Shown: positions 1 through 12,414 of the stretch, one piece after another
How the letters are laid out: each line of letters starts with the position of its first letter
How positions within the stretch are numbered: position 1 is the first letter of the stretch
Assembly: GCA_965218585.1 (NCBI GenBank)
Contig: CBDCLE010000011.1
Span: forward strand, 1-64,000
Source of the DNA: Terriglobia bacterium
GTDB lineage: Bacteria > Acidobacteriota > Terriglobia > 20CM-2-55-15
DNA: 64,000 nucleotides
Direction of reading: 5' to 3'
The notes under the pieces: generated by a model
What the model was told of the DNA's origin: nothing
What the model saw: only the letters and a program-made list of their open reading frames with translations
The model's database searches: none
Program-made: the position numbers and the translations under genes

Positions 1-1185
1 CCGAGCCGACGGCGATGGTCCCCTTGCGGGGATAGAGGCCGAACAGGCGGGCAGGGTTGGTCGCGGTCACCGCAACGAACCGCTCCGCCGAGATCCGTCC
101 CGTGACAACGCCTTCGGAAAACACATGGGACGGATCATCTGCAGGTTGTCGATGAGACCGTGGTCGGTGGCGAGCACATGGATGGACCCGTCGGCGATTC
201 CCGTCCCATAGGGCGTCCTGATCGCGCGCGGTCCGCAGCGGCGGCGAGCTGCGATAGCGATCGCGATCGGGCCCTTCGAAACGCTCCCGGTAAAGTGGAG
301 ATAGATGGACCGGGTTTCGACGTACACCGGCAGGCCCCGAGCCTGCGCCTGCTGGGCGACCCGCAGCGCTCCCTCCGTCGACATGTGCACGATGTAGATC
401 GGCGCGCCCGTCGCCTCGACCATGGCCACGACCCGCTGGGTGGCGACGACCTCAGCGATCGCCGGCTGCTGTCGGGATAGTACCGGAGCGAAGTCCGACC
501 CTCGGCGGTCAGCTTCTCGACGGCTTGGTCTACGATGGGTCCATCCTCACAGTGAACCATCGTCAGGATGCCGGCTTCCCCGGCCGCATCGAGCATCGCC
601 AGGTAGCCGCGGATGTTGTCATCGAAATCGGGACGGGCCATGAAAACCTTGACGCTGGTCTGGCCGGTGTCGGTGCTCAAGGTAGCCATCTCATGCTGTT
701 GGGCGTCCGGGTCGTCGATGACCGGATGGAGCATGAAGTCCGCGATCGCCTGCTGTCGGATCAGGGGAACCTCGCGTTCGACGGCTCTGGCGAGGGTCTG
801 TCGCTGCTGGGGAAACGCCCCGGAAAGGACCGGGACCTCGGGGAACGGAAGTTCGAGATCGTCGTCATGCCGCCGGCCAGGGCAGACCGCGAGCCGCTTT
901 CAAAGTCGTCGACGACGTCCCCGCCCAGGTGCACGTGGGGATCGACGCCGCCGGGAATGACAAGCAGGCCCGTGGCATCTAGTTCCCGGGCGCGGCACCC
1001 GCTTCCAGGTTTTCGCCGATGTCGACGATCACACCGCCGCGGATGCGCACGTCGGCCCCAAAGCGGCCTTCGGAGGTCACGATCGTGCCGTCGCGAATGA
1101 CGATCTCCGCGGGCTGCTGACTCCAGGACGGAAGTGCGATTCCGAGGAGAACAAAGAAAACTGCCGGGTTCACGAGGAGACGCAT
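1..1185 (-). pseudogene. Dihydropyrimidinase/dihydroorotase-like amidohydrolase with signal peptide; several frameshifts; runs off the left edge
   Basis: Consecutive ORF fragments 979-1185, 761-1210, 135-734 and 67-429 give IRDGTIVT..., DATGLLVIPGGVDPHVH, ALAGGMTT, MVHCED, YIVHMST and LATDH. Confidence 0.8.
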
Positions 1186-1702
1186 GGGGACACCTCCGGG
1201 ATTGGGTCATTTCGATGATTCTTCCAACGTACCTTACTCCTTTTATTCGGGCGACGCTACGGTGAACAGTTCACTACGCCTGCGTTCGCTGTCCTCGGGA
1301 ATTGGCAAGCGCGAGAAGCAGGGGAACGAGACCGACATACATGCCGGAACCACGCAACCAACGCCACCAGTTCGGGAACAAATACAGGAGCGTGACTGCG
1401 ATAGCCAACCCGTAGATGGCGATGCTCAAATCCGACGAGCTTGCGCCTGGCCTTCCAGCCCCAGTTCAAGGCAAACGTGACGATCAGCGACAGGACAAGA
1501 AGTGAGGACGACATGTACTTTATTGGCCCCCCACTAAGTATCAAGGATGGGGACGGCATGATCGTGAAACCGATCGTATTAGCTTTTAATTCACCTCACA
1601 GAAGTGGATGGACAAGGAGGGACCGCAGCAGCCGACGCACGATTCCATTGGTCGGCCGACTGACTAAGGCCGGACGAAAAACAGTGAAATCCATTCTCAA
1701 CG

Positions 1703-1732
1703 CCTGTTAAATCATCTTGTCGACGTTGAGAA
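1703..1732 (+). repeat. Repeat site 1 (CCTGTTAA ATCATC TTGTCGAC GTTGAGAA), preceded by ATTCTCAACG, which pairs with its own 3' end
   Basis: Direct sequence match to copies at 3390, 5011 and 7827. Confidence 0.9.
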
Positions 1733-1772
1733 TCCCACCAGGGGGTTGAGTGGCCCCGCTCAGGAGGTCGAG

Positions 1773-1934
1773 GTGAAAGCGAAGAAAAAGACGACCCCGG
1801 ACGTTCGCGTCTGGTGCCAACACTGTCGCGTTCGAATCTCACCCAATGAAGACTAGGTTGCCGCCGGTGACAAGGTCTACCATAGGCAGTGCTTTCCCAA
1901 GCGGCCCTCCGTCAAGAGGGCTAAGAAGAAGTAG
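1773..1934 (+). CDS. Small basic zinc-finger-like protein (CxxC...HxxC), 53 codons, with in-frame TAG at 1854-1856; absent from the ORF track
   Basis: AGGAGG upstream of GTG; translates MKAKKKTTPDVRVWCQHCRVRISPNED*VAAGDKVYHRQCFPKRPSVKRAKKK. Confidence 0.6.
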
Positions 1935-2016
1935 CGGATGTTTCTGAATGAGTGCCCGCCGCAAGTGAGCCACCATCCGTTAGGTTGCCGAATTTGGAAC
2001 GAAAAGCGAGGGCAAG

Positions 2017-3380
2017 GAGGTCGTTCCAATCGGTGTGTAAAAAGAGAAGGCGGTGTACGCTTTCGGTGAATCCGAAACCCTAAGCAATCCGGCAGCAATC
2101 GGGAGAAAGGTACACCACCCATGAAGAAGAAGAACATACCGGCATCAGTGGCGTCAACGAACGCGTATGAAGGTTTGGAGGACTGGGCGCGATCCCGGGT
2201 CCAAGTCTGGCTACAGGAGCTGCTCGAGGACGAAGTCACTCAATTTCTGGGTCGGGAAAAGTTGGAGCGGAGTCCGAATCGACGAGGATACCGGAACGGT
2301 CACGGGAAGCCGCGACGCTTCGCAATGATGAACGGTACGATGGAGGTTCGACGACCTCGGGTTCGAAACACCGCCGAGCGGTTCGAGAGTCAGATCCTGC
2401 CGTATTTTCGACGGAAATCGAAACAGCTGGGCGAGCTACTTCCCGATCTCTACCTCCACGGTCTGGCCACAGGGGACTTCGAGCAGGCCATGCGCGGACT
2501 GCTTGGCGCTGGCGCTCCGTTGTCGCGAGCATCGATCCAACGACTGAAATCGACCTGGCAGTTGGAGTATGACGAGTGGGTCCAGCAGGACCTGTCCGGC
2601 CTCGAGGTCGTGTACCAGTGGGCAGACGGCTTGTACGTGAAAGCGGGGATCGCGAAAGAGCGAGCGGCATTGCTGGTGATCATCGGAGCCTTGTCAGACA
2701 GGCGCAAAGTGCTGTTGGCCTGTGAGAGCGGGCAGCGGGAAAGCAAGGAGTCCTGGAGCCGCATTCTGCGCAATCTCCAGAGACGGGGCCTGAAGCTGGG
2801 ACGGCTGACTGTCGCGGACGGTCACCTGGGCATCTGGTCCGCGCTGGCCGAGCAACAGCCCCAGGGCCAGGAACAACGCTGCTGGAACCACAAGTCGATC
2901 AACGTGGTCGATCATCTGCCGAAGACCGAGCAGCCCGCGGCCAGACAGCTGCTTCATGGGATGGCCTTCGCGAACTCCCGCGCGGCCTGCGAACGAAAGC
3001 GGGATCAGTTCGTCCGCCGATATGAGAAGAACTATCCCAAAGCGGGTGAGACGCTGTTGCGGGACTGGGACCGGATGATTACTTTCTATGAGTTCCCGAA
3101 ACAACACTGGGTGCATCTGAGAACAACCAACATCGTCGAATCGCCCTTCGACATGGTTCGCCTCCGCACCAACGCCGCTCGCCGATTCAAGCGTGTCGAG
3201 AATGCAACGGCAATGATCTGGAAGCTACTACGTGTCGCTGAGAAGGCTTGGCGACACTTAAAAGGATCCGAACTCTTACAAGAGGTCTATGATGGTCAGC
3301 AATTCGCTGACGGCATCAGAGTCGTGATGAAATCGAAGGCCGCCGCCTGATGACTTTTACACACCTTTTGTAATGACCTC
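2017..3380 (+). mobile_element. IS256-family insertion sequence with 26-bp imperfect terminal IRs and 8-bp target duplication AGGGCAAG
   Basis: IRL GAGGTCGTTCCAATCGGTGTGTAAAA at 2017; IRR (rc) GAGGTCATTACAAAAGGTGTGTAAAA ending 3380; AGGGCAAG at 2009-2016 and 3381-3388. Confidence 0.93.
2121..3350 (+). CDS. IS256-family (Mutator-type) DDE transposase
   Basis: YRNG, LYLHGLATGDF, WADGLY, VADG, QRCWNHK and LRTTNIVES motifs. Confidence 0.95.
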   Translation: MKKKNIPASVASTNAYEGLEDWARSRVQVWLQELLEDEVTQFLGREKLERSPNRRGYRNGHGKPRRFAMMNGTMEVRRPRVRNTAERFESQILPYFRRKSKQLGELLPDLYLHGLATGDFEQAMRGLLGAGAPLSRASIQRLKSTWQLEYDEWVQQDLSGLEVVYQWADGLYVKAGIAKERAALLVIIGALSDRRKVLLACESGQRESKESWSRILRNLQRRGLKLGRLTVADGHLGIWSALAEQQPQGQEQRCWNHKSINVVDHLPKTEQPAARQLLHGMAFANSRAACERKRDQFVRRYEKNYPKAGETLLRDWDRMITFYEFPKQHWVHLRTTNIVESPFDMVRLRTNAARRFKRVENATAMIWKLLRVAEKAWRHLKGSELLQEVYDGQQFADGIRVVMKSKAAA

Positions 3381-3389
3381 AGGGCAAGT

Positions 3390-3419
3390 CCTGATAAATC
3401 ATCTTCTGGACGTTGAGAA
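3390..3419 (+). repeat. Repeat site 2 (CCTGATAA ATCATC TTCTGGAC GTTGAGAA)
   Basis: Direct match to the other copies. Confidence 0.9.
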
Positions 3420-3437
3420 CCCCTGTTTTTGGGCCTT

Positions 3438-3468
3438 TTCTCACTGTCCGAGAATGTCGTTTGTCAGG
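3438..3468 (-). repeat. Inverted copy of the repeat site with a different 6-bp core (CCTGACAA ACGACA TTCTCGGAC AGTGAGAA); forms a ~98-bp imperfect palindrome (3381-3478) with site 2
   Basis: The reverse complement of 3438-3468 aligns to the consensus arms. Confidence 0.85.
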
Positions 3469-3570
3469 ACTTGACCTTCTGATTGCGTCCTTTTACCGAG
3501 TTTCTCTCCGTAGCGAAGGTAGTGGTGCCTGATGCCATTCGCGTGCACGTGAGCACCGCACAGAAACGTG

Positions 3571-4944
3571 CTACCCATGGGTGGGTTTCTCCAGGCTCGG
3601 CGGCACGTAGTAGGCGCCCCGAGTCAGGACGGCGACGACAACGTGCACGACGAACGAGATCGTCCCGGCCACGAACGCCGACGCGGCCGTCAGTACCGGA
3701 TCTCCGCTCAGCAACGCCAAAACGCCTACCAGTGATCCGCAGACCAACGCGACCGGCCCAACGGGATTCCATGCGCGCAGATGCGTCTCACGGTACTCGA
3801 TATCAGTTCCGCCGATCTTCAGCCACCGCTTGACAACCAGCAAATCGGCAAGCATCGACGCCGCCCACGCAAACATGAAGATCCCCTGAAAGGTGAGCAC
3901 CGGTCCCACGTACGCGAGTATGTTGCTCAGCATCGCAACGAGTGCCAACACGGCCGCGCTCACCACCCAGAAGGCCCGCCCGGGCACAAATCCGACCACT
4001 CGTGCAAAGAAGCTCGAAAGCGACAACGAGCCGCTATACACGTTGATCACGTTGATGCGCAGCTGGCTCAGTACCGTGTAGACGGCGCCCCAGGCCCCCA
4101 TCACCGCCACCATGTACACCCCAGGGTTCGGCTGATCGAAGCGGGCGGCGAACCAGATACCGACGAGCCCCATGACGAAGAAGGAAGCGATCTGGGGCAC
4201 GAACCCCACCGCCAGTGCCCCGACCCTCAGCTCGCCCTCCTTGATGAAACGTGCATAGTCGGCCGTGAGCAGCGACTGCACACCGACGATTCCGTTCAGA
4301 ATGCCCATGCACGTCAGCAAGGCCACGCCCCCAACCCGTCCTCCAGGGGGCATCATCGTGAGCCACTCGCCGGCACCCGGGGCTCCGGCCATATCGTTGG
4401 CCAGCACAATCGCGCTGGCCAGCAGAATCACATAAATCGGCAACGAGTACTTCTGAAACCGGTCCAGCTGCTTCATGCCGTACCAGTTCAAGGCGACGTT
4501 TCCCGCGGTGATGATCACCAGCAGAAGAGCCAGCGGTGCCTGCGGCACGTACGCCCTGATGGCCTGCGCGATGATACTGCCCTCGATCGCCGCCAGAATG
4601 ATGAAGTTCGATGCGTAGATGAGCGACGTGAGACCGGCTCCAACGTAGCCATAGCCACACCCGCGAGCCAGGAGATTGGAGTTGAGCCCCGTGGACGCCG
4701 AACTCCACGCAAACGCCACGGCCAGCACGCCGGTCATTAAGGTGGCGTACAGGTTCGCGAGGATGGCATTGGGCGTGCCGTACTGCAGCGCCATCTCACC
4801 GGATACCTGCATGAAGATCATGGCACCGGCGATTCCAAGCGTCACGTTGACGATGCCTGGCCATGGCATTCTGGCGCCGCTGGGCACAGTGCTCAGCGCG
4901 TAGTCGTCGCTCTCAGGTCGCTGTCCATCCTTCGTGTCGGTCAT
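3571..4944 (-). CDS. Purine-cytosine permease / NCS1 (CodB-like) transporter
   Basis: About 12 TM segments; DDYALSTVP, GYGYVG, TADYARF and QLRINVINVYSGSL motifs. Confidence 0.85.
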   Translation of the reverse strand: MTDTKDGQRPESDDYALSTVPSGARMPWPGIVNVTLGIAGAMIFMQVSGEMALQYGTPNAILANLYATLMTGVLAVAFAWSSASTGLNSNLLARGCGYGYVGAGLTSLIYASNFIILAAIEGSIIAQAIRAYVPQAPLALLLVIITAGNVALNWYGMKQLDRFQKYSLPIYVILLASAIVLANDMAGAPGAGEWLTMMPPGGRVGGVALLTCMGILNGIVGVQSLLTADYARFIKEGELRVGALAVGFVPQIASFFVMGLVGIWFAARFDQPNPGVYMVAVMGAWGAVYTVLSQLRINVINVYSGSLSLSSFFARVVGFVPGRAFWVVSAAVLALVAMLSNILAYVGPVLTFQGIFMFAWAASMLADLLVVKRWLKIGGTDIEYRETHLRAWNPVGPVALVCGSLVGVLALLSGDPVLTAASAFVAGTISFVVHVVVAVLTRGAYYVPPSLEKPTHG

Positions 4945-5010
4945 TCGTGTGCGTCTCGTCCAGTCAGCGTGAAAGAACGGATGCCGGTGCCCCGATTCTT
5001 GAGTTCAATT

Positions 5011-5041
5011 CCTGAGAAATCATCTTCTCGGACGTTGAGAA
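5011..5041 (+). repeat. Repeat site 3 (CCTGAGAA ATCATC TTCTCGGAC GTTGAGAA)
   Basis: Direct match to the other copies. Confidence 0.9.
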
Positions 5042-5258
5042 TTGAGCGGCAGGCGATCCCGTCCCTGGCGGCAGATGAATCAGGAGGTACTGGATCCAGT
5101 AATCTCTCCGCAGCACCATATGTGACATGGCGGCCGCGCAACCCGGTAACCCGTTAAATATTGCACGCCCTGCATGTTTCGTCTATGCTCTCGCCTATAA
5201 ACGCTGTCTCCTTTTTCTTCAGTATTACGAAGACGCCGAAAGCTGGGGGGGGTGAATA

Positions 5259-5981
5259 ATGCGCCTGATGCTAATTGCTTCGGCAGCCCTGGCACTCTCT
5301 ATGTCAGGACCTTTGCTCGCCCAGGAATGGATTGAGTTTGCCAGCCCGGAAGATCGCTTCACCTGCAATTTCCCGAGCGAACCGAACATAACGGAGACTA
5401 CCTACCGATCGGAATATGGGGCCGATCTGCCGGCGCGCGTCTACAGCGCCACCGAAGGCCAGAGCCGCTATTCCGTAACGGTTGTCGATTACAACCAGGC
5501 CCAACGAATACTTACAGAAAGAACCGAGGCCTGCCCACCGGGTGCCGAAACCTGCAGGGGAGGATCCTCCACCGGTGCGGGATACTGGAGGAATGATGTA
5601 CGCGGCGCGATTGTCTATGCGTCGTGGCAGTTCGTGCAACGGGATGTTGAGCTGACTCACTACATGTGGAATTTTATCGACCTCGTGGAGGGACATCAGC
5701 TACATCTGACCAACAACGCCGATCAGTCCCGCACCTTCGCATCGATCTACATGCACGAAAACAAGCTGTATATCGCAGAGGGAACCGTGCCGGCGGGTTA
5801 CCCAGAGCCGGGGATCTTTCAGCAATCGCTAGGATGGCTCGACGAGAACGGGATCGGCCTTCGCTATCAGTCTGTTTACTCCAACGGATTTTCTCCACCC
5901 CCCCGTGTCGACAGAACGGTTCGGCCGGGTCAAGGTCGGATTGACGCTCCCGAGGCAGGTCAACGGCACCAGGAGCGCTAA
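5259..5981 (+). CDS. Exported hypothetical protein
   Basis: Signal peptide ending LLA-QEW; 240-aa ORF with G-rich RBS. Confidence 0.75.
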   Translation: MRLMLIASAALALSMSGPLLAQEWIEFASPEDRFTCNFPSEPNITETTYRSEYGADLPARVYSATEGQSRYSVTVVDYNQAQRILTERTEACPPGAETCRGGSSTGAGYWRNDVRGAIVYASWQFVQRDVELTHYMWNFIDLVEGHQLHLTNNADQSRTFASIYMHENKLYIAEGTVPAGYPEPGIFQQSLGWLDENGIGLRYQSVYSNGFSPPPRVDRTVRPGQGRIDAPEAGQRHQER

Positions 5982-6022
5982 TCGTGAAACCTTCGTCAGT
6001 ATCGATTACGAGGAGGGTAAGC

Positions 6023-6424
6023 ATGCGGTTCAACCCAGGTCTTGTCGTTGCGGCGATTTGTGGCGTTGCTCTCGCCTTGCCAGCGTGGGCACACCACTCC
6101 CACGGCAACTACGTCGACACGTTTACTGATGTTGAAGGTGTGGTTAAGGAATTTCACTTGATCGTCCCGCACTCCTGGATCTACCTGGAAGTCAGCGACA
6201 CCAACGGCGACCCGCAAATGTGGGCTTTGGAAGCAACCGGTCGCCCAGGGCTCGAAAGAATAGGAGTGACGCGCGACTACGTCAAACCGGGCGACACCGT
6301 CAAAGCGCGCTGCCATCGTCACAGGGACGGCTCCAACGGCTGTCTTCTGGGATTTCTGAAGGCCCAGGACGGAACCGTCAAAGATTGGGACGGCAACAAC
6401 GCGCCTCCGCCGACTGATTTCTGA
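6023..6424 (+). CDS. DUF6152-like small exported protein
   Basis: GGAGG RBS; AWAHHSH...EGVVKEF...PHSWIYLEV...W-ALE pattern. Confidence 0.8.
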   Translation: MRFNPGLVVAAICGVALALPAWAHHSHGNYVDTFTDVEGVVKEFHLIVPHSWIYLEVSDTNGDPQMWALEATGRPGLERIGVTRDYVKPGDTVKARCHRHRDGSNGCLLGFLKAQDGTVKDWDGNNAPPPTDF

Positions 6425-6436
6425 GAGCTCCGAACT

Positions 6437-6452
6437 AACTGTTTGAACAGTT
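6437..6452. promoter_or_regulatory. Palindromic operator-like site AACTGTT-TG-AACAGTT
   Basis: 7-bp perfect arms in an AT-rich intergenic patch upstream of 6538. Confidence 0.4.
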
Positions 6453-6537
6453 TTAACTAGACTTGGACACTATCTCCAGAGATAGCGAGTGGGCGAAGCG
6501 AAGAGAATTAACGGTCTCTGAGCTCGAAGATGATGGC

Positions 6538-7587
6538 ATGAGAAGGATCACGAAACGGCATGTCGTCCACGCGCTGGCCGCGTTCGCTCTAGTCGTGACA
6601 CCGCCCGATGCGCTCGCGCACCATTCGGCACGGCTGCAATACGATATGGATCAGGTTGCCGAGGTCGAGGGGGAGATCACCCGCATCGTTTGGCGTAACC
6701 CGCACGTGCGATTCACGCTCAGCGTTGGGAGTGGGGCCGGGCGGCAGGAATGGTCCATCGAGAGCATACCGGTCACGCGCCTCGCGCGCATCGGGGTCAC
6801 CGACGACATGCTCAGCGTCGACGAGACGATTCGCGTGGCGGGTTATCCATCTAGGGTTGGAGCGCCGCAGATGTACGCGTTGAATCTGCTGCTGCCCGAC
6901 AGCCGCGAGATCTTGCTTGACACACCGACGGCGCACTGGAGCGGACAGACGATCGGCACAGGCCTCGATACGACACCGGGTGAGGCCGGTGCTGACCCAT
7001 CGCTCGGGATCTTCCGCGTCTGGAGCAACGACGGCACGTTTCTCGCGACCGAGACGAGGTTTCTGAGCGAAGGCGGAACGCTCGCCTACCCGCTGACCGA
7101 TGCGGCGCGCGCGGCACAGGCCGAGTGGAATCCGCTGGCGCCCGATAATCCGTTTCTGAGCTGCGCGCCTAAAGGCATGCCGCTGATCATGCAGCAGCCC
7201 AACCCGATCCAGTTCGTGGAAGGCGAAGATGAGATCACGCTGCGCATCGAGGAATTCGACACGGTGCGCACGATCCACATGACGCCGCCGGCGGCGGAGC
7301 CGTTGCCGCCGACATTGCTCGGGCATTCCGACGGGCGGTGGGATGGTGATACGCTCGTCGTCACGACGACCGGTATCGACTGGCCGTATTTCGATCAATG
7401 GGGGCTCAGGTAGAGCGAGAACATGCGCGCGGTCGAGCGTTTCACCGTAGATGCGGCCGGCGGCAAGCTCGAGTATGAGCTCACGGTCACGGACCCGTGG
7501 CTCTTCACGGAGCCCGTGACGCTCGGCAAATCGTGGCGGTGGTTGCCGGGCGATTGGGTGCTGCCGTTCGATTGTGCCTACGACTGA
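6538..7587 (+). CDS. DUF6152 N-domain + C-terminal beta-rich exported protein; in-frame TAG at 7411-7413
   Basis: AHHS...WRNPH; the frame continues past TAG as SENMRAVERF...FDCAYD and is homologous to 33566-34590. Confidence 0.8.
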
Positions 7588-7803
7588 GCGCGCGAGGGTA
7601 CCGGCACCGGACCCTGTGTCGCCGTAGGATGCGTGCGCTAGGATCGCATGCTTCGGATCTCCGCGCTCCGGATTCCTGAACCACGTGTCCTCGATCCCTA
7701 TCCGGCGCGACGCTTCGCCGCTAATCATTCGGGGTAAGAGCCGGATGCGGTAACGCCGCTCCTCCGGATCTGTCCGGGGGGGGCCGGGTGAGGGGCATTC
7801 CGA

Positions 7804-7826
7804 CCGGGATATTTACGTTGTCAAGG
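7804..7826 (-). repeat. Degenerate inverted partner abutting repeat site 4
   Basis: rc = CCTTGACAA CGTAAA TATCCCGG versus CCTGACAA ATCATC TTCCCGG. Confidence 0.6.
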
Positions 7827-7857
7827 CCTGACAAATCATCTTCCCGGACGTTGAGAA
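7827..7857 (+). repeat. Repeat site 4 (CCTGACAA ATCATC TTCCCGGAC GTTGAGAA)
   Basis: Direct match to the other copies. Confidence 0.9.
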
Positions 7858-8051
7858 ACGACCGAAAGTCTGGCATTGATGCTTCTCTTGCCAATAACCC
7901 TCCCATGTAGATAGACTTACGAAATCCCTCCTTTGACGGGGCTGGACTTGCACCAGCTGGAAATACGGCTTCTGTTTCTCCCGCGTCGATGTCCATCTTC
8001 ATACCCTGATGAAATGCTCATTGAACGATCACTGTAAGGAGGCTCCAGCAA

Positions 8052-9032
8052 ATGGACGGAAAAATCGCTTTCGAGGAACACATGGCGACCTCGGAAACCT
8101 TGGAGGCCGCGCGCAGCTTTGTCCGAGGAACCGGGACGTGGGACGCATTCGCGAGCCAGATCCTGGACGTGGGGGACAAGCGGTTGGCCAGAATGGAGAT
8201 GAATGGCATCGAATTCGTCATCCTCTCGCTCAACGCCCCGGGAATCCAGGGGATTTTGAACACGAACGCGGCGATCGAGGTGGCCCGGAGAGCCAACGAC
8301 CATCTCGCCGAAGCAGTTGCCGAACATCCTGAGCGGTTGGCCGGCTTCGCGGCGCTCCCCATGCAGGACCCGGACGCGGCATCGGAGGAGCTGATCCGTT
8401 CGGTGAAGGACTTGGGTTTCAAGGGTGCACTGGTCAACGGTTTTACCCAGAAGAGCGTTCCGGATTCGGCAATCTATTTCGACCTTCCCGAATACAGGAG
8501 TTTTTGGTCAACGGTCTCCGAGCTGGACGTGCCGTTCTATTTACACCCACGGATGCAGATCCCGGCGCACGCCCAACCCTATGAGGGGCACCCGTGGCTG
8601 GTGGGCGCCCCCTGGGGGTTTGCGGTGGAAACATCGATCCACGCGCTCCGCCTGTGCGGCTCAGGAGTGTTCGACGAATTTCCAAACCTGAAGATCATTC
8701 TCGGTCACCTCGGCGAACACATCCCGTACGATCTCTGGCGGATTGATGCGCGTATGCGCTTCTCGCCAGGCGGATACACCGGCAAGCGTTACCTCGGAGA
8801 ATATTTCCGCGATCACTTCTACATCACGACAAGCGGCAATTTCTGCGATCCGTCGTTCCAATGTGCCTTGACGGTCATGGGAATCAACCGCATGTTCTTT
8901 TCGGCCGATTACCCGTTCGAGAAAATGGAAGACGCGGCCAACTGGTTCGACAACGCGCCCCTGTCCGAGGCCGAGCGATTGCAGATCGGCCGCACCAACG
9001 CCATCAACCTTTTCAACCTGGATTTGCAATGA
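8052..9032 (+). CDS. Amidohydrolase_2 non-oxidative (hetero)aromatic acid decarboxylase (gamma-resorcylate/2,3-DHBA decarboxylase-like)
   Basis: KIAFEEH, LSLNAPGIQ, FYLHPR, GHLGE, ITTSGNF and FSADYPFE motifs. Confidence 0.9.
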   Translation: MDGKIAFEEHMATSETLEAARSFVRGTGTWDAFASQILDVGDKRLARMEMNGIEFVILSLNAPGIQGILNTNAAIEVARRANDHLAEAVAEHPERLAGFAALPMQDPDAASEELIRSVKDLGFKGALVNGFTQKSVPDSAIYFDLPEYRSFWSTVSELDVPFYLHPRMQIPAHAQPYEGHPWLVGAPWGFAVETSIHALRLCGSGVFDEFPNLKIILGHLGEHIPYDLWRIDARMRFSPGGYTGKRYLGEYFRDHFYITTSGNFCDPSFQCALTVMGINRMFFSADYPFEKMEDAANWFDNAPLSEAERLQIGRTNAINLFNLDLQ

Positions 9033-9200
9033 TGGCAAGTCCGGTTCGTAAGGTTTCCATGAGCGAGGGTCTTCCCTACGGTTGACGGCAACGAAGGGTT
9101 GCCAGCCTTTGTGTCACCGAAAACTATGGCTCGGCGCCTCTCGCCGTGCCGGGCTCTCGGTATGGATTCAGGAAAGGGCACCCAGATCGGTGCTTTTCGT

Positions 9201-10442
9201 TTAAGTCTCCTCTCTTGCCGGCCGCTGGCTCAGCAACACCCACAGAATCAATCCCAACGTCGGGCACAAGGCCATCAACCAGAAGGATTCGCTGTACCGC
9301 CCCTGGCCGAACCAGCGTCCGACCAACGGCAACAGAATGACGTTTGCGGCTGACCACGAGCCGGTGGCGATCCCCATCATCATTGCGGACTGTTCGCGCG
9401 GGTATGCGTATGAGTTTGCCTTGAGGACTACCATCTGAAATCCTCCCACGATAAACGCCGTCCAGGAAATCAGAGAAATGGCCAGGACTGGGGATGCGGT
9501 CAGAGTCGTTGCTCCAATCGGAAACGACAATGCGGTAAGGAGCAGAAACATTCCAATGGGGCGGGGCTGGTCGGTGGCAAATCGATCGGCGGCCCACCCC
9601 CAGAAGAAGTAGCCGACCGCCCAGGCAAACGGCGGCGCCCATAGAAGCCGCCCTAAAGCGGCCTGCTCCACACCCAGCCCCTGACTGAAGTACAGAGGAA
9701 CGATGGCCAGAATCGGGCCCATGGAAACCGTTGTCAGGCAGTAGCCGATCACGAGAGCCCAGAACCGCCTCTCAAACGGATTCGGCCACGCCATGCGCGT
9801 CGTCTTCGGCGCTACTTCTGCCAAATACGGAGGACGCGCCCACACCCGCCACAGGAGTATCCACAAGAATCCCAGCACCCCCGTGATTAGAAATGCCGCG
9901 CGCCAACCAAACCGGACCCCGATGGGGATGACGATTATTGGAGTCAGGACGGCCCCGATGGCTCCACCACTAAAGGATGTTGCGATCCCACGTGCGCGGC
10001 GGTCTGGAGGCAGCGACTCGACCGCTGTCCTGAAACCACCGGGGAAGGTTGCTCCCTCGCCAAAACCCAGGAAAGCACGTGCGATTGCGAATCCCAGGAA
10101 ACCGGCCATCAATGCGTGCGAAGCGCTCGCCACACTCCAGACGGCAACGGCCACCACCATGTCCATGCGCAGACCCACTCGGTCCAGAATAGAGCCCCAG
10201 AGCGGATTCCCGATCATGTAAGTGAAGTTGAAGATCGCAAATATCAGGCCGTAGGTTTCTGGAGTCATCCCGGTGTCAGCGAGTATCGTGGGCGCGAGCA
10301 CGGCCATGACCTGCCGGTCCACAAACGCAAGCCAGGAACAACCTCCCATCGCCATGCAGGGGATCCAGATGCGCCATCCCATGGCGTTACCCGACGCCTG
10401 CCCCCCAGCAAGACCCGTCGTTGCTCCAGTTGATCTGACCAT
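9201..10442 (-). CDS. MFS transporter (ACS/ExuT-like)
   Basis: FVDRQ, GSILDRVG and RAFLGFGEGATFP motifs; hydrophobic 12-TM pattern. Confidence 0.88.
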   Translation of the reverse strand: MVRSTGATTGLAGGQASGNAMGWRIWIPCMAMGGCSWLAFVDRQVMAVLAPTILADTGMTPETYGLIFAIFNFTYMIGNPLWGSILDRVGLRMDMVVAVAVWSVASASHALMAGFLGFAIARAFLGFGEGATFPGGFRTAVESLPPDRRARGIATSFSGGAIGAVLTPIIVIPIGVRFGWRAAFLITGVLGFLWILLWRVWARPPYLAEVAPKTTRMAWPNPFERRFWALVIGYCLTTVSMGPILAIVPLYFSQGLGVEQAALGRLLWAPPFAWAVGYFFWGWAADRFATDQPRPIGMFLLLTALSFPIGATTLTASPVLAISLISWTAFIVGGFQMVVLKANSYAYPREQSAMMMGIATGSWSAANVILLPLVGRWFGQGRYSESFWLMALCPTLGLILWVLLSQRPAREET

Positions 10443-10528
10443 AAAGACGGGCCGAAGCGGGATCGGCTCCTTCAGGAAGAATGGTGATCTGGTCTTCCCG
10501 ATTACTCTCAGAACCGAGCGTAATCGGC

Positions 10529-11326
10529 TTAACTTGTGACGAATTGTCGGACCGTCGAGACGAACCGATCGAGATCGTCCCAGGGAATCATGTGGCCCAC
10601 GTTATCGATCCGCACAGAGCGGGCGTCGGGAAGAGCGCCGATGATCTCCCGAGCGTCGGTGTCCGTGATCGTGCCGCCCAGGGCGGCGTACACAAGGAGC
10701 GTATGACTTTTCACCTTAGGTAACAGGGAAAAGATATCCTCTTCATGACAGGAACGATACGACTCTTCTACCGCTTTCTTGTCGCAGGTCGGCAGCCACT
10801 CAGCCCTTAGACCGAGCTCCTGGTCGTTCCAGTTGGGAAGCATCTGCCGCATGGATTCGAAGCCCCCGCCCCGGGAAGTTTCGTCTATTGCGTCCAGATA
10901 CAGTTCGAGCGGCATGGGATATGGCCGACGTCCAGGCCCTGAGACAGGAGGATCCGCAAGGACGACCTTCCCGACCAACTCCGGTGATTGGGCAGCGAGT
11001 TTGATCGCGATTCGGGCTCCAATGGAGTGGCCCAGTATCACAGGCCGATCGAGGTTGAGGGACCGAATGAAGTCCGCTGTGTCGCGGGCGTAGTCTTCCA
11101 GCCAGTACGATAGCTCCGGCCCGCCCGACGATAGGCCACGCCCCCGGTTATCGAGAGCGTAGACATGACCGAATTCGGCCAATCGCCGCGAGACAAAGTC
11201 CCAGGTGATTGCGGGGCTGGTGATACCCGGGATGAGAACCAGCGGTTTGCTCCCGCTTTGATACTCGAGATAGTGGAGACGGATGCCGTTGCACATCACG
11301 TGCCGACCACTAACTTCCTCACTCAT
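10529..11326 (-). CDS. nicD: N-formylmaleamate deformylase (alpha/beta hydrolase)
   Basis: PGITSPAITW, RGRGLSSGGP, GHSIG, DPPVSGPGRRPYP, LRAEWL and GHMIPWDD as in NicD; adjacent to nicX. Confidence 0.88.
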   Translation of the reverse strand: MSEEVSGRHVMCNGIRLHYLEYQSGSKPLVLIPGITSPAITWDFVSRRLAEFGHVYALDNRGRGLSSGGPELSYWLEDYARDTADFIRSLNLDRPVILGHSIGARIAIKLAAQSPELVGKVVLADPPVSGPGRRPYPMPLELYLDAIDETSRGGGFESMRQMLPNWNDQELGLRAEWLPTCDKKAVEESYRSCHEEDIFSLLPKVKSHTLLVYAALGGTITDTDAREIIGALPDARSVRIDNVGHMIPWDDLDRFVSTVRQFVTS

Positions 11327-11373
11327 GAGACTATTCGCGCACTAACTTCTTGGCGTTTTTCCATTGCTCCAGC

Positions 11374-12414
11374 TCAAACACCGTCAGGGCGCATCTTCGG
11401 AATCGAAAGACCCCGGTCTCTCACCACAACCTCACCGTCCAGAGTAAGCGTGCAGTCGCGAAGTGGTATATCCAAATGGCAGGGCGTGTCGTTTGTCCCA
11501 CCAAACTCGCTATTGGGGCCGGTGGAGAAAAGGACGTTCCCATAGAAGGCTCGAGCATCCATCCCAAGTTCCTTGTAAGGATCGCCGGCCAAGGCCATGT
11601 GGTGCCAATCCGCCCGATGGTTGAGTCCCCAGCCGATGTGAGAGATCGCGTAAGCCTTGTGATCAAACTGGGCCATGTAATCGCGCACTAACGCCGCATC
11701 GAGTCCACCTTCGATGTCTTTTACATAGCCACGCTCAATTACGAATTTAACCGGGCTCTGCACGTAGCGGTGGAAATCACAGAGAATGTCTCCGGGGCTC
11801 AGAACCACGATGCCATCGACGCCGTCATCGGAAGCGCCTGTAAAGACGAAACCCGAGGGCCAATGGTCCCAACGGCCTGGTGTATCGGTATAACCGTATT
11901 CGGCCACCACTGGATAAGCCCCCAACTGGTAGGTAACGTCCGTCCCCGCCGGCGAAGTAATGCGCATTACCTTTGCATCTTTCAATAGCTTTTCACCGAC
12001 CTCCACGCGGCGCTTAAGATCCTCGTCGGGAAAGAGGCGGCGCAGCACCTCGATCGGCTCGACAACCAGGAGCACGCGGGTTCCGGCTTTGGTGATCTCC
12101 AACTGCTCGGGGGAAAAGAGCAGAAGCATGAGGTCGATCAGAATGTCGGCGTTTTTGAGGGCTTCGATAGCGGCTCGATTGTTAGCGAGCGCTGTTTGCC
12201 CCCAGCCGTTCCCAGAGCCGCCAATGGTCCGGCGGGACGGAACGTTGACTTGGAAGCACTCCGCGCCCAATTGTTGAGCCGCAATCAGGAAGGCCCGAGC
12301 GTAATCAGCCCGAATCTCGTCTTCACTCAACACCGCAACAGTCTGTCCCGGCCCGACTTTGCAGAGTTCCAGCTCGGCCTTGAACAGTTCTACCATGCTC
12401 GCATCAGCAGGCAT
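11374..12414 (-). CDS. nicX: 2,5-dihydroxypyridine 5,6-dioxygenase
   Basis: EYGYTDTPGRWDHWPSGF, SHIGWGL, MDARAFYGN-LFSTGPN and TPCHLDIPLR as in NicX/Hpo. Confidence 0.92.
   Translation of the reverse strand: MPADASMVELFKAELELCKVGPGQTVAVLSEDEIRADYARAFLIAAQQLGAECFQVNVPSRRTIGGSGNGWGQTALANNRAAIEALKNADILIDLMLLLFSPEQLEITKAGTRVLLVVEPIEVLRRLFPDEDLKRRVEVGEKLLKDAKVMRITSPAGTDVTYQLGAYPVVAEYGYTDTPGRWDHWPSGFVFTGASDDGVDGIVVLSPGDILCDFHRYVQSPVKFVIERGYVKDIEGGLDAALVRDYMAQFDHKAYAISHIGWGLNHRADWHHMALAGDPYKELGMDARAFYGNVLFSTGPNSEFGGTNDTPCHLDIPLRDCTLTLDGEVVVRDRGLSIPKMRPDGV

Follow-up and report, generated by a model that had tools for sequence, protein, structure and literature searches.

Repeat sites and modules in the window

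The window analysed here is the whole 64,000-nucleotide stretch from contig C11 (C11:1-64000) of a Terriglobia genome (G000, an assembly of 4.55 Mb in 26 contigs), and it was compared with the genomes of four congeners (G001 to G004). Between positions 1697 and 7857 it holds four copies of a short repeat, here called the site, which bound modules of unrelated genes and belong to a family of sites clustered in arrays elsewhere in the genome; these arrays may be the product of site-specific recombination with a cassette-like logic. The pattern ATCATCTT-N3-4-GACGTTGAGAA matched the window four times, always on the + strand (at 1711, 3398, 5019 and 7835), and in none of 100 dinucleotide-shuffled versions of it (0 expected vs 4 found). 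An earlier note on this DNA had reported four same-orientation copies, with the word CCTGWNAA starting at 1703, 3390, 5011 and 7827, and both the copies and the coordinates were borne out, as was its description of two arms around a 6-bp spacer in direct orientation. Read in context, each copy is a 37-bp unit composed, in order, of TCAAGTCCTGAnAA, ATCATC and TTnTCGGACGTTGAGAA. The site copies are as follows:

1697-1732, + strand: site copy 1, with 5' arm TCAACGCCTGTTAA and spacer ATCATC at 1711-1716; its 3' arm reads TTGTC-GACGTTGAGAA, one base short
3384-3419, + strand: site copy 2, with spacer at 3398-3403 and a 3' arm one base short
5005-5041, + strand: site copy 3, with spacer at 5019-5024
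7821-7857, + strand: site copy 4, with spacer at 7835-7840
3438-3479, - strand: degenerate inverted site copy with the second spacer type (ACGACA class), nhmmer E=0.03

An nhmmer profile built from genomic copies found no further good copy in window positions 1-64000 beyond these four, in agreement with the earlier note, the degenerate inverted copy being the only weak addition. Site copy 2 and this inverted copy together make a long hairpin (3378-3485 folds at -23.3 kcal/mol, z score -5.9), and a remnant of the promoter region of a kinase gene family, described below, follows the inverted copy at 3470-3512. Directly after site copy 4 comes a downstream flank of the class we call D2 (7858-7930), which is promoter-like and belongs to the same kinase family. 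The remaining features of the array are the cargo of its three modules and the elements inserted among them:

1773-1934, + strand: module 1 cargo, a small CxxC (zinc-ribbon-like) open reading frame (ORF) with an in-frame TAG at 1854-1856
2017-3380, + strand: insertion sequence of the IS256 family, with a Transposase_mut ORF at 2121-3350
3571-4944, - strand: module 2 cargo, a 457-aa membrane protein antisense to the sites and distantly cytosine/NCS1 permease-like
4968-4995, + strand: kinase-family 3'-end remnant (..KERMPVP, stop lost) of the kind that precedes many site copies
5259-7587, + strand: module 3 cargo, three genes, one of them broken
7736-7810, + strand: group II intron remnant, domains V-VI, about 10 bases upstream of the 5' arm of site copy 4

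That the sites delimit unrelated modules, as the earlier note had proposed, is supported by this content, and its gene assignments held in part. Module 1 has two counterparts in G001, at 91% and 86% identity, and another within G000 itself at C1:111444. The small zinc-finger gene assigned to it is present as a CxxC ORF, interrupted by the in-frame TAG; contigs from two other samples read C at position 1854. The IS256 insertion placed inside this module was confirmed by its transposase ORF and by an 8-bp target duplication (AGGGCAAG at 2009-2016 and 3381-3388), which falls inside the 5' arm of site copy 2; this insertion sequence is not itself a module and has a 98% identical match in the congeners. 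For module 2, the NCS1 permease of the earlier note gave no Pfam match, and only a full-length but weak match to the cytosine permease model NF008241 was found (E=7.5e-9, 34.8 bits against a cut-off of 326); no copy of this cargo occurred in the four congeners among the matches listed.

Module 3 had been described as three exported-protein genes. The first encodes a 240-aa signal-peptide protein of no family, the second (5984-6424) is a DUF6152 protein, and the third (6463-7413 and 7423-7587) contains DUF6152 and is broken in two, with a stop between 7413 and 7423. The stretch at 5150-6480 was 86-89% identical to copies in G001, G003 and G004. The group II intron match (33.5 bits, E=0.0016) is below the Rfam gathering score of 40, and with no intron ORF present it is probably a 3' fragment of such an intron; the stretch from 7603 to 7810 is also 80% identical to a sequence in G004. 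Group II introns were rejected as a general feature of the sites, G000 holding only two sub-threshold matches.

Anatomy and distribution of the site family

In the site, the spacer ATCATC lies between unequal inverted arms, each about 14 bp long: TCAAGTCCTGAnAA and TTnTCGGACGTTGA, the second followed by GAA. Across 295 profile-defined sites the central AAATCATCTT was conserved at 90-97% and the arms at 80-95%, in a profile that was seeded with pattern-defined copies and so favours the pattern's own positions; anchoring on the 3' tail alone gave the same consensus at lower frequencies. The spacer is flanked by AA and TT, the mutually symmetric positions -3 and +8 are free to vary, and conservation stops at about -14 and +22. 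As inverted repeats, the arms are shifted against each other by fixed one-base offsets and keep fixed differences, and their co-variation was not significant (49 of 81 variable-position pairs pairable, permutation p=0.06). The exact spacer ATCATC was found in 237 of 297 sites; another 15 sites with similar arms carry ACGACA, ACGATC or ACGACC (the ACGAYM class) and are mostly inverted, just upstream of the kinase-family promoter. Compared with shuffled sequence, three of the four window copies folded no better (z -0.8 to -1.9) and copy 1 folded better (z -4.1), and a Rfam scan of window positions 1-12000 at E<=1 gave no match on any site. A conserved asymmetric spacer between distinct arms is the usual look of tyrosine-recombinase core sites and is not usual for hairpin repeats or regulator palindromes, and the anatomy seen here fits a putative protein-bound, double-stranded core site.

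The earlier note had seen no further copies in the rest of the window; genome-wide, the site is a family of about 70-140 copies per genome. G000 has 55 copies at <=2 mismatches, against 0 for a reversed-pattern control, and 71 by nhmmer at E<1e-4, spread over 26 loci. Site counts were 137 in G001 and 98 in G003, with 10 and 1 in the other two congeners (1 in G004); in other genera among 40 relatives they were 0-2 per genome, and any match at all was found in 14 of 41 genomes. Within G000, 45 neighbour pairs lie <=8 kb apart (mean 8.0 and maximum 17 in 2000 random placements), and 38 of these 45 are co-oriented (p=3e-6). Sites inside an ORF of >=150 aa numbered 8 of 71, while such ORFs cover 86% of the genome, and the other 63 lie outside them. 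DNA sampled from three genomes gave 175 co-oriented and 24 opposed neighbour pairs out of 199, the minor spacer class taking part in 18 of the 24, with a median site spacing of 1.8-2.7 kb. The earlier note had named hundreds of copies scattered genome-wide, without regard to module boundaries, as a finding that would refute it; the many genome-wide copies come close to this, but they are clustered in arrays at module boundaries.

In public genome contigs, an exact scan for the site gave no match, and a looser pattern gave six stretches, three of them true sites, in two Terriglobia records of metagenome-assembled genomes. A scan of public metagenomes returned 25 contigs, about 13 of which, all short, carry true sites; the remaining matches lacked the 5' arm and were chance matches in unrelated DNA, and the sole viral-contig match was rejected on the same ground. 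As far as these collections go, the site family is that of one genus of Terriglobia together with a few related metagenome contigs. Two individual cases stood out in the survey. The site at C1:111750 in G000 has lost about 25 bases between two TGAGAA words, one in the 5' arm and one in the 3' tail, and the loss is, by its appearance, a slippage-type deletion inactivating the site. In G001, contigs C6 (L083/L084) and C11 (L085/L087) share stretches of 99.5-100% identity that include several sites with both flanks; they reflect either a large duplication of recent date or a duplicate made in assembly.

Many sites are accompanied by pieces of one gene family. Upstream of them lies a gene 3' end, ..NWFEELKERVPVP*, and downstream a promoter-like stretch followed by the start of a Ser/Thr kinase, MESGTKLGHYEI.., and many copies are situated 23-33 nt after the kinase stop codon and before the promoter-like region and start codon of the family. 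The kinase family of G000 amounts to 42 end-fragments, and no ORF bears both ends; in the relatives, site-rich DNA totalling about 0.97 Mb yielded 57 fragments with the N-terminal end only, 74 with the C-terminal end only and, at 883-889 aa, 3 intact genes. Every end-bearing member in G000 is thus split or truncated (C2:547436-550113, C2:550261-552959, C9:76274-80323 and C11:74138-78111 are split or truncated members), and 3 of 134 end-bearing ORFs in the sampled DNA of the relatives are intact; assembly frameshifts may account for some of the splits. Left and right flank classes pair freely around the site.

Junctions and movement of modules

Homology between the surroundings of different sites was nearly always one-sided. 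Among pairs of the 297 sites with at least 200 nt of adjoining homology, the shared flank was the right one alone in 123 and the left one alone in 68; 7 pairs shared both, and six of these seven were near-identical internal duplications in G001. The position of the switch was mapped with pairs of >=88% flank identity in ungapped register (25 right-only and 33 left-only pairs, from 16 families each). The 5' arm followed the left flank, with mismatch of 0-0.12 compared to 0.17-0.35 when the right flank alone was common, and the variable positions of the 3' arm followed the right flank, with mismatch of 0.10-0.32 compared to 0.44-0.56 with the left flank; the switch therefore lies between -4 and +7. 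Worked examples of such junctions were provided by a 0.5-kb DUF3024 module present in G000, G001 and G003 and, within the window, by the zinc-ribbon module.

Modules of the window and of a 20-kb array on contig C4 have counterparts of 84-95% identity in G001 and G003, situated at unrelated positions, and the ends of these matches often coincided with sites, whereas the stretch from 20.8 to 33.3 kb of the window, ordinary core DNA collinear in all four congeners, was only 68-78% identical. The modules are therefore much younger than the species split, or are exchanged between species. The comparison with relatives that the earlier note had suggested found entire modules in different surroundings, the homology ending at the spacer, and one paralogous pair of arrays within G001 had its modules reordered.

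The modules measure about 0.4-7 kb; the content of each is an insertion sequence or else unrelated accessory genes, from one to a few. The cargo of the C4 array and the window included a distant NCS1-like permease, DUF6152 proteins, amidohydrolases, DUF3024, cytochrome c, DUF6282, an outer-membrane barrel, a cyclase, an esterase and an ankyrin protein. In the relatives, 150 ORFs drawn at random from 269 crude between-site ORFs hit 125 Pfam families, with transposases commonest, a diversity like that of a cassette pool.

Interpretation and comparison with known systems

The reading we favour, to which we give about an even chance, is that of a lineage-specific array of modules shaped by site-specific recombination, with a cassette- or dif-like logic and belonging to neither the integron nor the dif system. 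In the proposed mechanism, a sequence-specific recombinase, most likely of the simple tyrosine type, would bind both arms and exchange strands in the spacer, joining two sites whose spacers are identical. Acting on direct repeats, it would release the module between them as a circle with a single hybrid site, and the reverse reaction would insert the circle at any other site, so that arrays could grow, shrink and reorder and modules could pass between arrays and species; the acting enzyme, its identity and the circles are putative parts of this scheme. Many modules keep the kinase promoter and first codons as well as its last codons, and a kinase gene with such sites on either side is the probable origin of the system.

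Several observations weigh against this reading. No recombinase gene lies within the 64-kb window, as the earlier note had already stated; G000 encodes XerC/D-like genes and yields a further 10 tyrosine and 7 serine recombinase matches, none of them beside an array, and the search for a recombinase gene flanking other copies, suggested in that note, returned neither a tyrosine nor a serine enzyme beside the G000 arrays. Resolvase-family counts in the five genomes do not track site counts, and no match adjoins an array. Neither an excision product nor an empty site was seen in the public short contigs or the congener site comparisons. The four public runs carrying the stretch that were compared all gave short contigs, in which site-to-site joints have sides of 18-38 bases or intervening letters, and these joints stem from paralogous repeat copies. 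A triple search among the 297 sites recovered only one reciprocal reordering, in G001, and did not yield any clean pair of an insertion and its empty counterpart. Some module ends and breakpoints fall away from sites: in four genomes the 5150-6480 unit has differing right ends with no site there, its left is truncated in G000, and G004 carries the unit despite having one site in its whole genome. Positions -3, +8, +9 and +15 are partly or not at all linked to either flank, -3 clearly to neither, which makes the crossover zone fuzzier than a 6-8 bp overlap predicts, and not sharp. The genes are also only weakly co-oriented with the sites (170 vs 99 crude ORFs). Finally, two recombinases that accompany sites in the relatives have no counterpart in G000: an integron-like enzyme linked to IS91 elements is absent by tblastn, and one adjoining an array on contig C9 of G001 has no G000 match at E<=1e-20. 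The latter array is bordered at its end (L131 3850-5417, G001:C9:1225852-1227417) by a TylF-like methyltransferase gene and a 231-aa tyrosine recombinase that comprises the catalytic domain only; these sit beside the core genes tig and clpP, and an 83% identical copy is present in G003.

The IS91-linked enzyme is the basis of a more specific proposal, which we consider unlikely, namely a cassette system sister to integrons in which an integron-like recombinase lacking the extra domain of IntI acts on double-stranded two-arm sites, not on folded attC; it would assemble many chromosomal arrays of cassettes and pass modules from species to species, and the ATCATC and ACGAYM spacers would then be heterospecific and form natural compatibility groups. 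The enzyme is encoded in G001 and G003 by a two-gene element, a 293-301-aa tyrosine recombinase with an IS91-family Y2 transposase (437 bits), and the recombinase scores best to an integron-integrase model, without the middle part of that model. In the preprint 10.1101/542381, IS91-borne recombinases fall in an integron-like subgroup without the insertion of IntI. All 9 copies of the element examined in G001 and G003 lie at or within about 35 nt of a site (copies at L037 1966-4028 and 15495-17557, L038 2990-5046, L039, L040, L042, L043 and L044), and in four of the nine its end abuts the arm/spacer boundary exactly, three of these four splitting an inverted ACGAYM-class site. A tetranucleotide is repeated at the junction, which fits ordinary IS91-type targeting of a hairpin loop, and the link of the element to the site is therefore a lead and not evidence. 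G002 has about 25 copies of the element and few sites, and the one copy examined there (L041) has no site nearby. As a candidate for the enzyme of G000 the element was rejected, a tblastn search with the G001 recombinase and Y2 transposase returning Xer genes only, at 37-38% identity.

That no recombinase was found also speaks for the main alternative, which we hold to be possible though doubtful, and in which the sites are repeats of the repetitive extragenic palindromic (REP) type, a hairpin palindrome spread with or from the kinase 3' end, and general or illegitimate recombination has shuffled the modules. By description the site would pass for a REP, which also counts against site-specific recombination: it is a short imperfect intergenic palindrome of 70-140 copies per genome, some copies form inverted doublets resembling REPINs, such as the hairpin at 3378-3485, and elements that seek hairpins are found at it: the IS91-family element in all nine G001 and G003 copies, though not in the G002 copy, and the group II intron remnant upstream of site copy 4. 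PMC3733652 describes REPs with a GTAG or CGTC tag at one end of the palindrome, and the site has a CGTC where its inner palindrome begins, read on the opposite strand (..AACGTCCGA..), a possible counterpart of that tag. The conservation pattern argues the other way, in that the part that would be the loop is best conserved, the arms lack significant co-variation and fixed differences between them are kept. The arrays are co-oriented with one copy per intergenic gap, not dispersed or in head-to-head dimers, and the switch in homology is concentrated at the spacer instead of being spread across all 37 bp together with the conserved remnants beside them. G000 has two Y1_Tnp (RAYT-like) genes, at C10:115768 and C3:160482, which are not flanked by sites, and a RAYT link was rejected: one has its nearest site 1.8 kb away, on one side only, and the other has no site near.

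The position of many sites, 23-33 nt past a kinase stop and ahead of a promoter-like region and start, would also suit a regulatory element of the kinase family, either the operator of a dimeric regulator or a transcript-end element, with the arrays being decayed tandem duplications whose interiors were replaced. The many kinase end-fragments (42 in G000, and 57 N-only, 74 C-only and 3 intact in the relatives) agree with such decay. However, the spacer of a regulator palindrome is usually free, unlike the one in the site, where no part is better conserved; the hairpin is not followed by a T-run, and there is no Rfam match; the left and right flank classes combine freely, and DUF3024 and zinc-ribbon modules without any kinase remnant use the same sites and move as units bounded by sites, all of which makes this explanation quite improbable. 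We regard it as very improbable that the sites are integron attC sites and the arrays clusters of attC sites lacking integron integrases (CALINs), served by the integron integrase of the genus. Genuine integron integrases do exist in G001, G002 and G003 (440-458 bits against a TIGR02249 cut-off of 265; intI at G001:C9:714608, G002:C41:5422451 and G003:C2:3040327), and one flank class extends the palindrome to TCTCAAC...GTTGAGA, recalling the AAC...GTT boxes of the attC consensus. G003 also has broken intI copies. These genes stand beside other arrays, those of G002 (L035 1000-7600) and G001 (L033 5400-8900) carrying classical attC sites, ..TAACGG...CTTGTTAGG, and the site profile gave no match in 120 kb around the three intI genes. 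In G000 the best integrase score was 83.7 bits, for a Xer-like gene, and the site is shorter than a classical attC. In attC, crossover takes place at the outer end (G|TT of R') and the whole hairpin stays with the upstream cassette; here the 3' arm moves with the downstream module, and the crossover is therefore not at G|TT.

If an enzyme does exchange these modules, they would represent a second, independent bacterial route to chromosomal gene-cassette arrays, in environmental Terriglobia (Acidobacteriota) that are abundant and poorly studied, with a simple, sequence-defined site for which genomes can be scanned. The flow of accessory genes between related environmental species, the role of the unexplained recombinases beside IS91 elements and the way in which a cassette system arises from an ordinary gene family would then become testable. 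Should the sites be a REP family instead, they would be an unusually clear case of repeats organising synteny breakpoints, which is of modest interest. A limited keyword search of the literature (IS91 tyrosine recombinases, Acidobacteria cassettes, pdif, REP/RAYT) did not find the element described.

Among known systems, integron cassettes share with the present arrays co-oriented short modules that each end in a repeat, diverse and mostly accessory cargo, cassette-like units that recur across arrays and species, and insertion sequences and a group II intron remnant at or near sites, insertion sequences and group II introns being known at or near attC as well. In contrast, attC is a folded single strand recognised by its shape with crossover at its end, and the 37-bp site has a conserved sequence, a core of double-stranded type and a central crossover. 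G000 has no IntI, no intI-attI-Pc platform lies beside any array examined, and the modules here are larger (median 1.8-2.7 kb), with mixed gene orientation and about 15 array loci per genome.

The earlier note had called the sites dif-like and yet neither canonical dif nor attC. The architecture agrees with the first description and the arm sequence does not, and the second holds, the integrons of the genus using classical attC sites unmatched by the profile and a separate dif-like site lying on contig C10. The scan of G000 used the dif consensus (..CATAA N6 TTATG..), which gave no match to the whole motif at <=3 mismatches, and a looser pattern gave a single dif-like site at C10:37495 (-), TGTCGCATAA-TGAGTA-TTATGTCAAGT; Xer dif identity was rejected for the site, its arms being unlike those of this dif-like site. 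The dif modules of Acinetobacter (pdif, XerC/XerD) likewise have two arms around a 6-bp spacer and comprise modules of one to a few genes shuffled between replicons. According to PMC13141974, their rearrangements occur between sites with identical or near-identical spacers and the modules are bounded by inversely oriented sites, C and D alternating, and an insertion-sequence family that targets pdif sites is described in PMC10132070. The pdif sites alternate in orientation, are plasmid-borne and have Xer-type arms, whereas the present sites are chromosomal direct repeats (175/199 co-oriented).

REP and REPIN sequences resemble the sites as short, extragenic, imperfect palindromes of high copy number, with some inverted doublets, which are targets of mobile elements and mark synteny breakpoints, and the dRS3/NIME arrays of Neisseria are a REP-like system for comparison. 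The present sites differ from REPIN-RAYT systems in that no RAYT gene is flanked by them, they form direct, clustered arrays, and they have a conserved spacer, no arm co-variation and a narrow crossover zone. The sfx sites of the R64 shufflon, recombined by Rci, have an asymmetric core in which one arm and the spacer are far better conserved than the other arm, a likeness to the present sites; sfx sites lie in inverted orientation and bring about inversions inside a single gene, whereas the sites described here are direct and bound whole genes.

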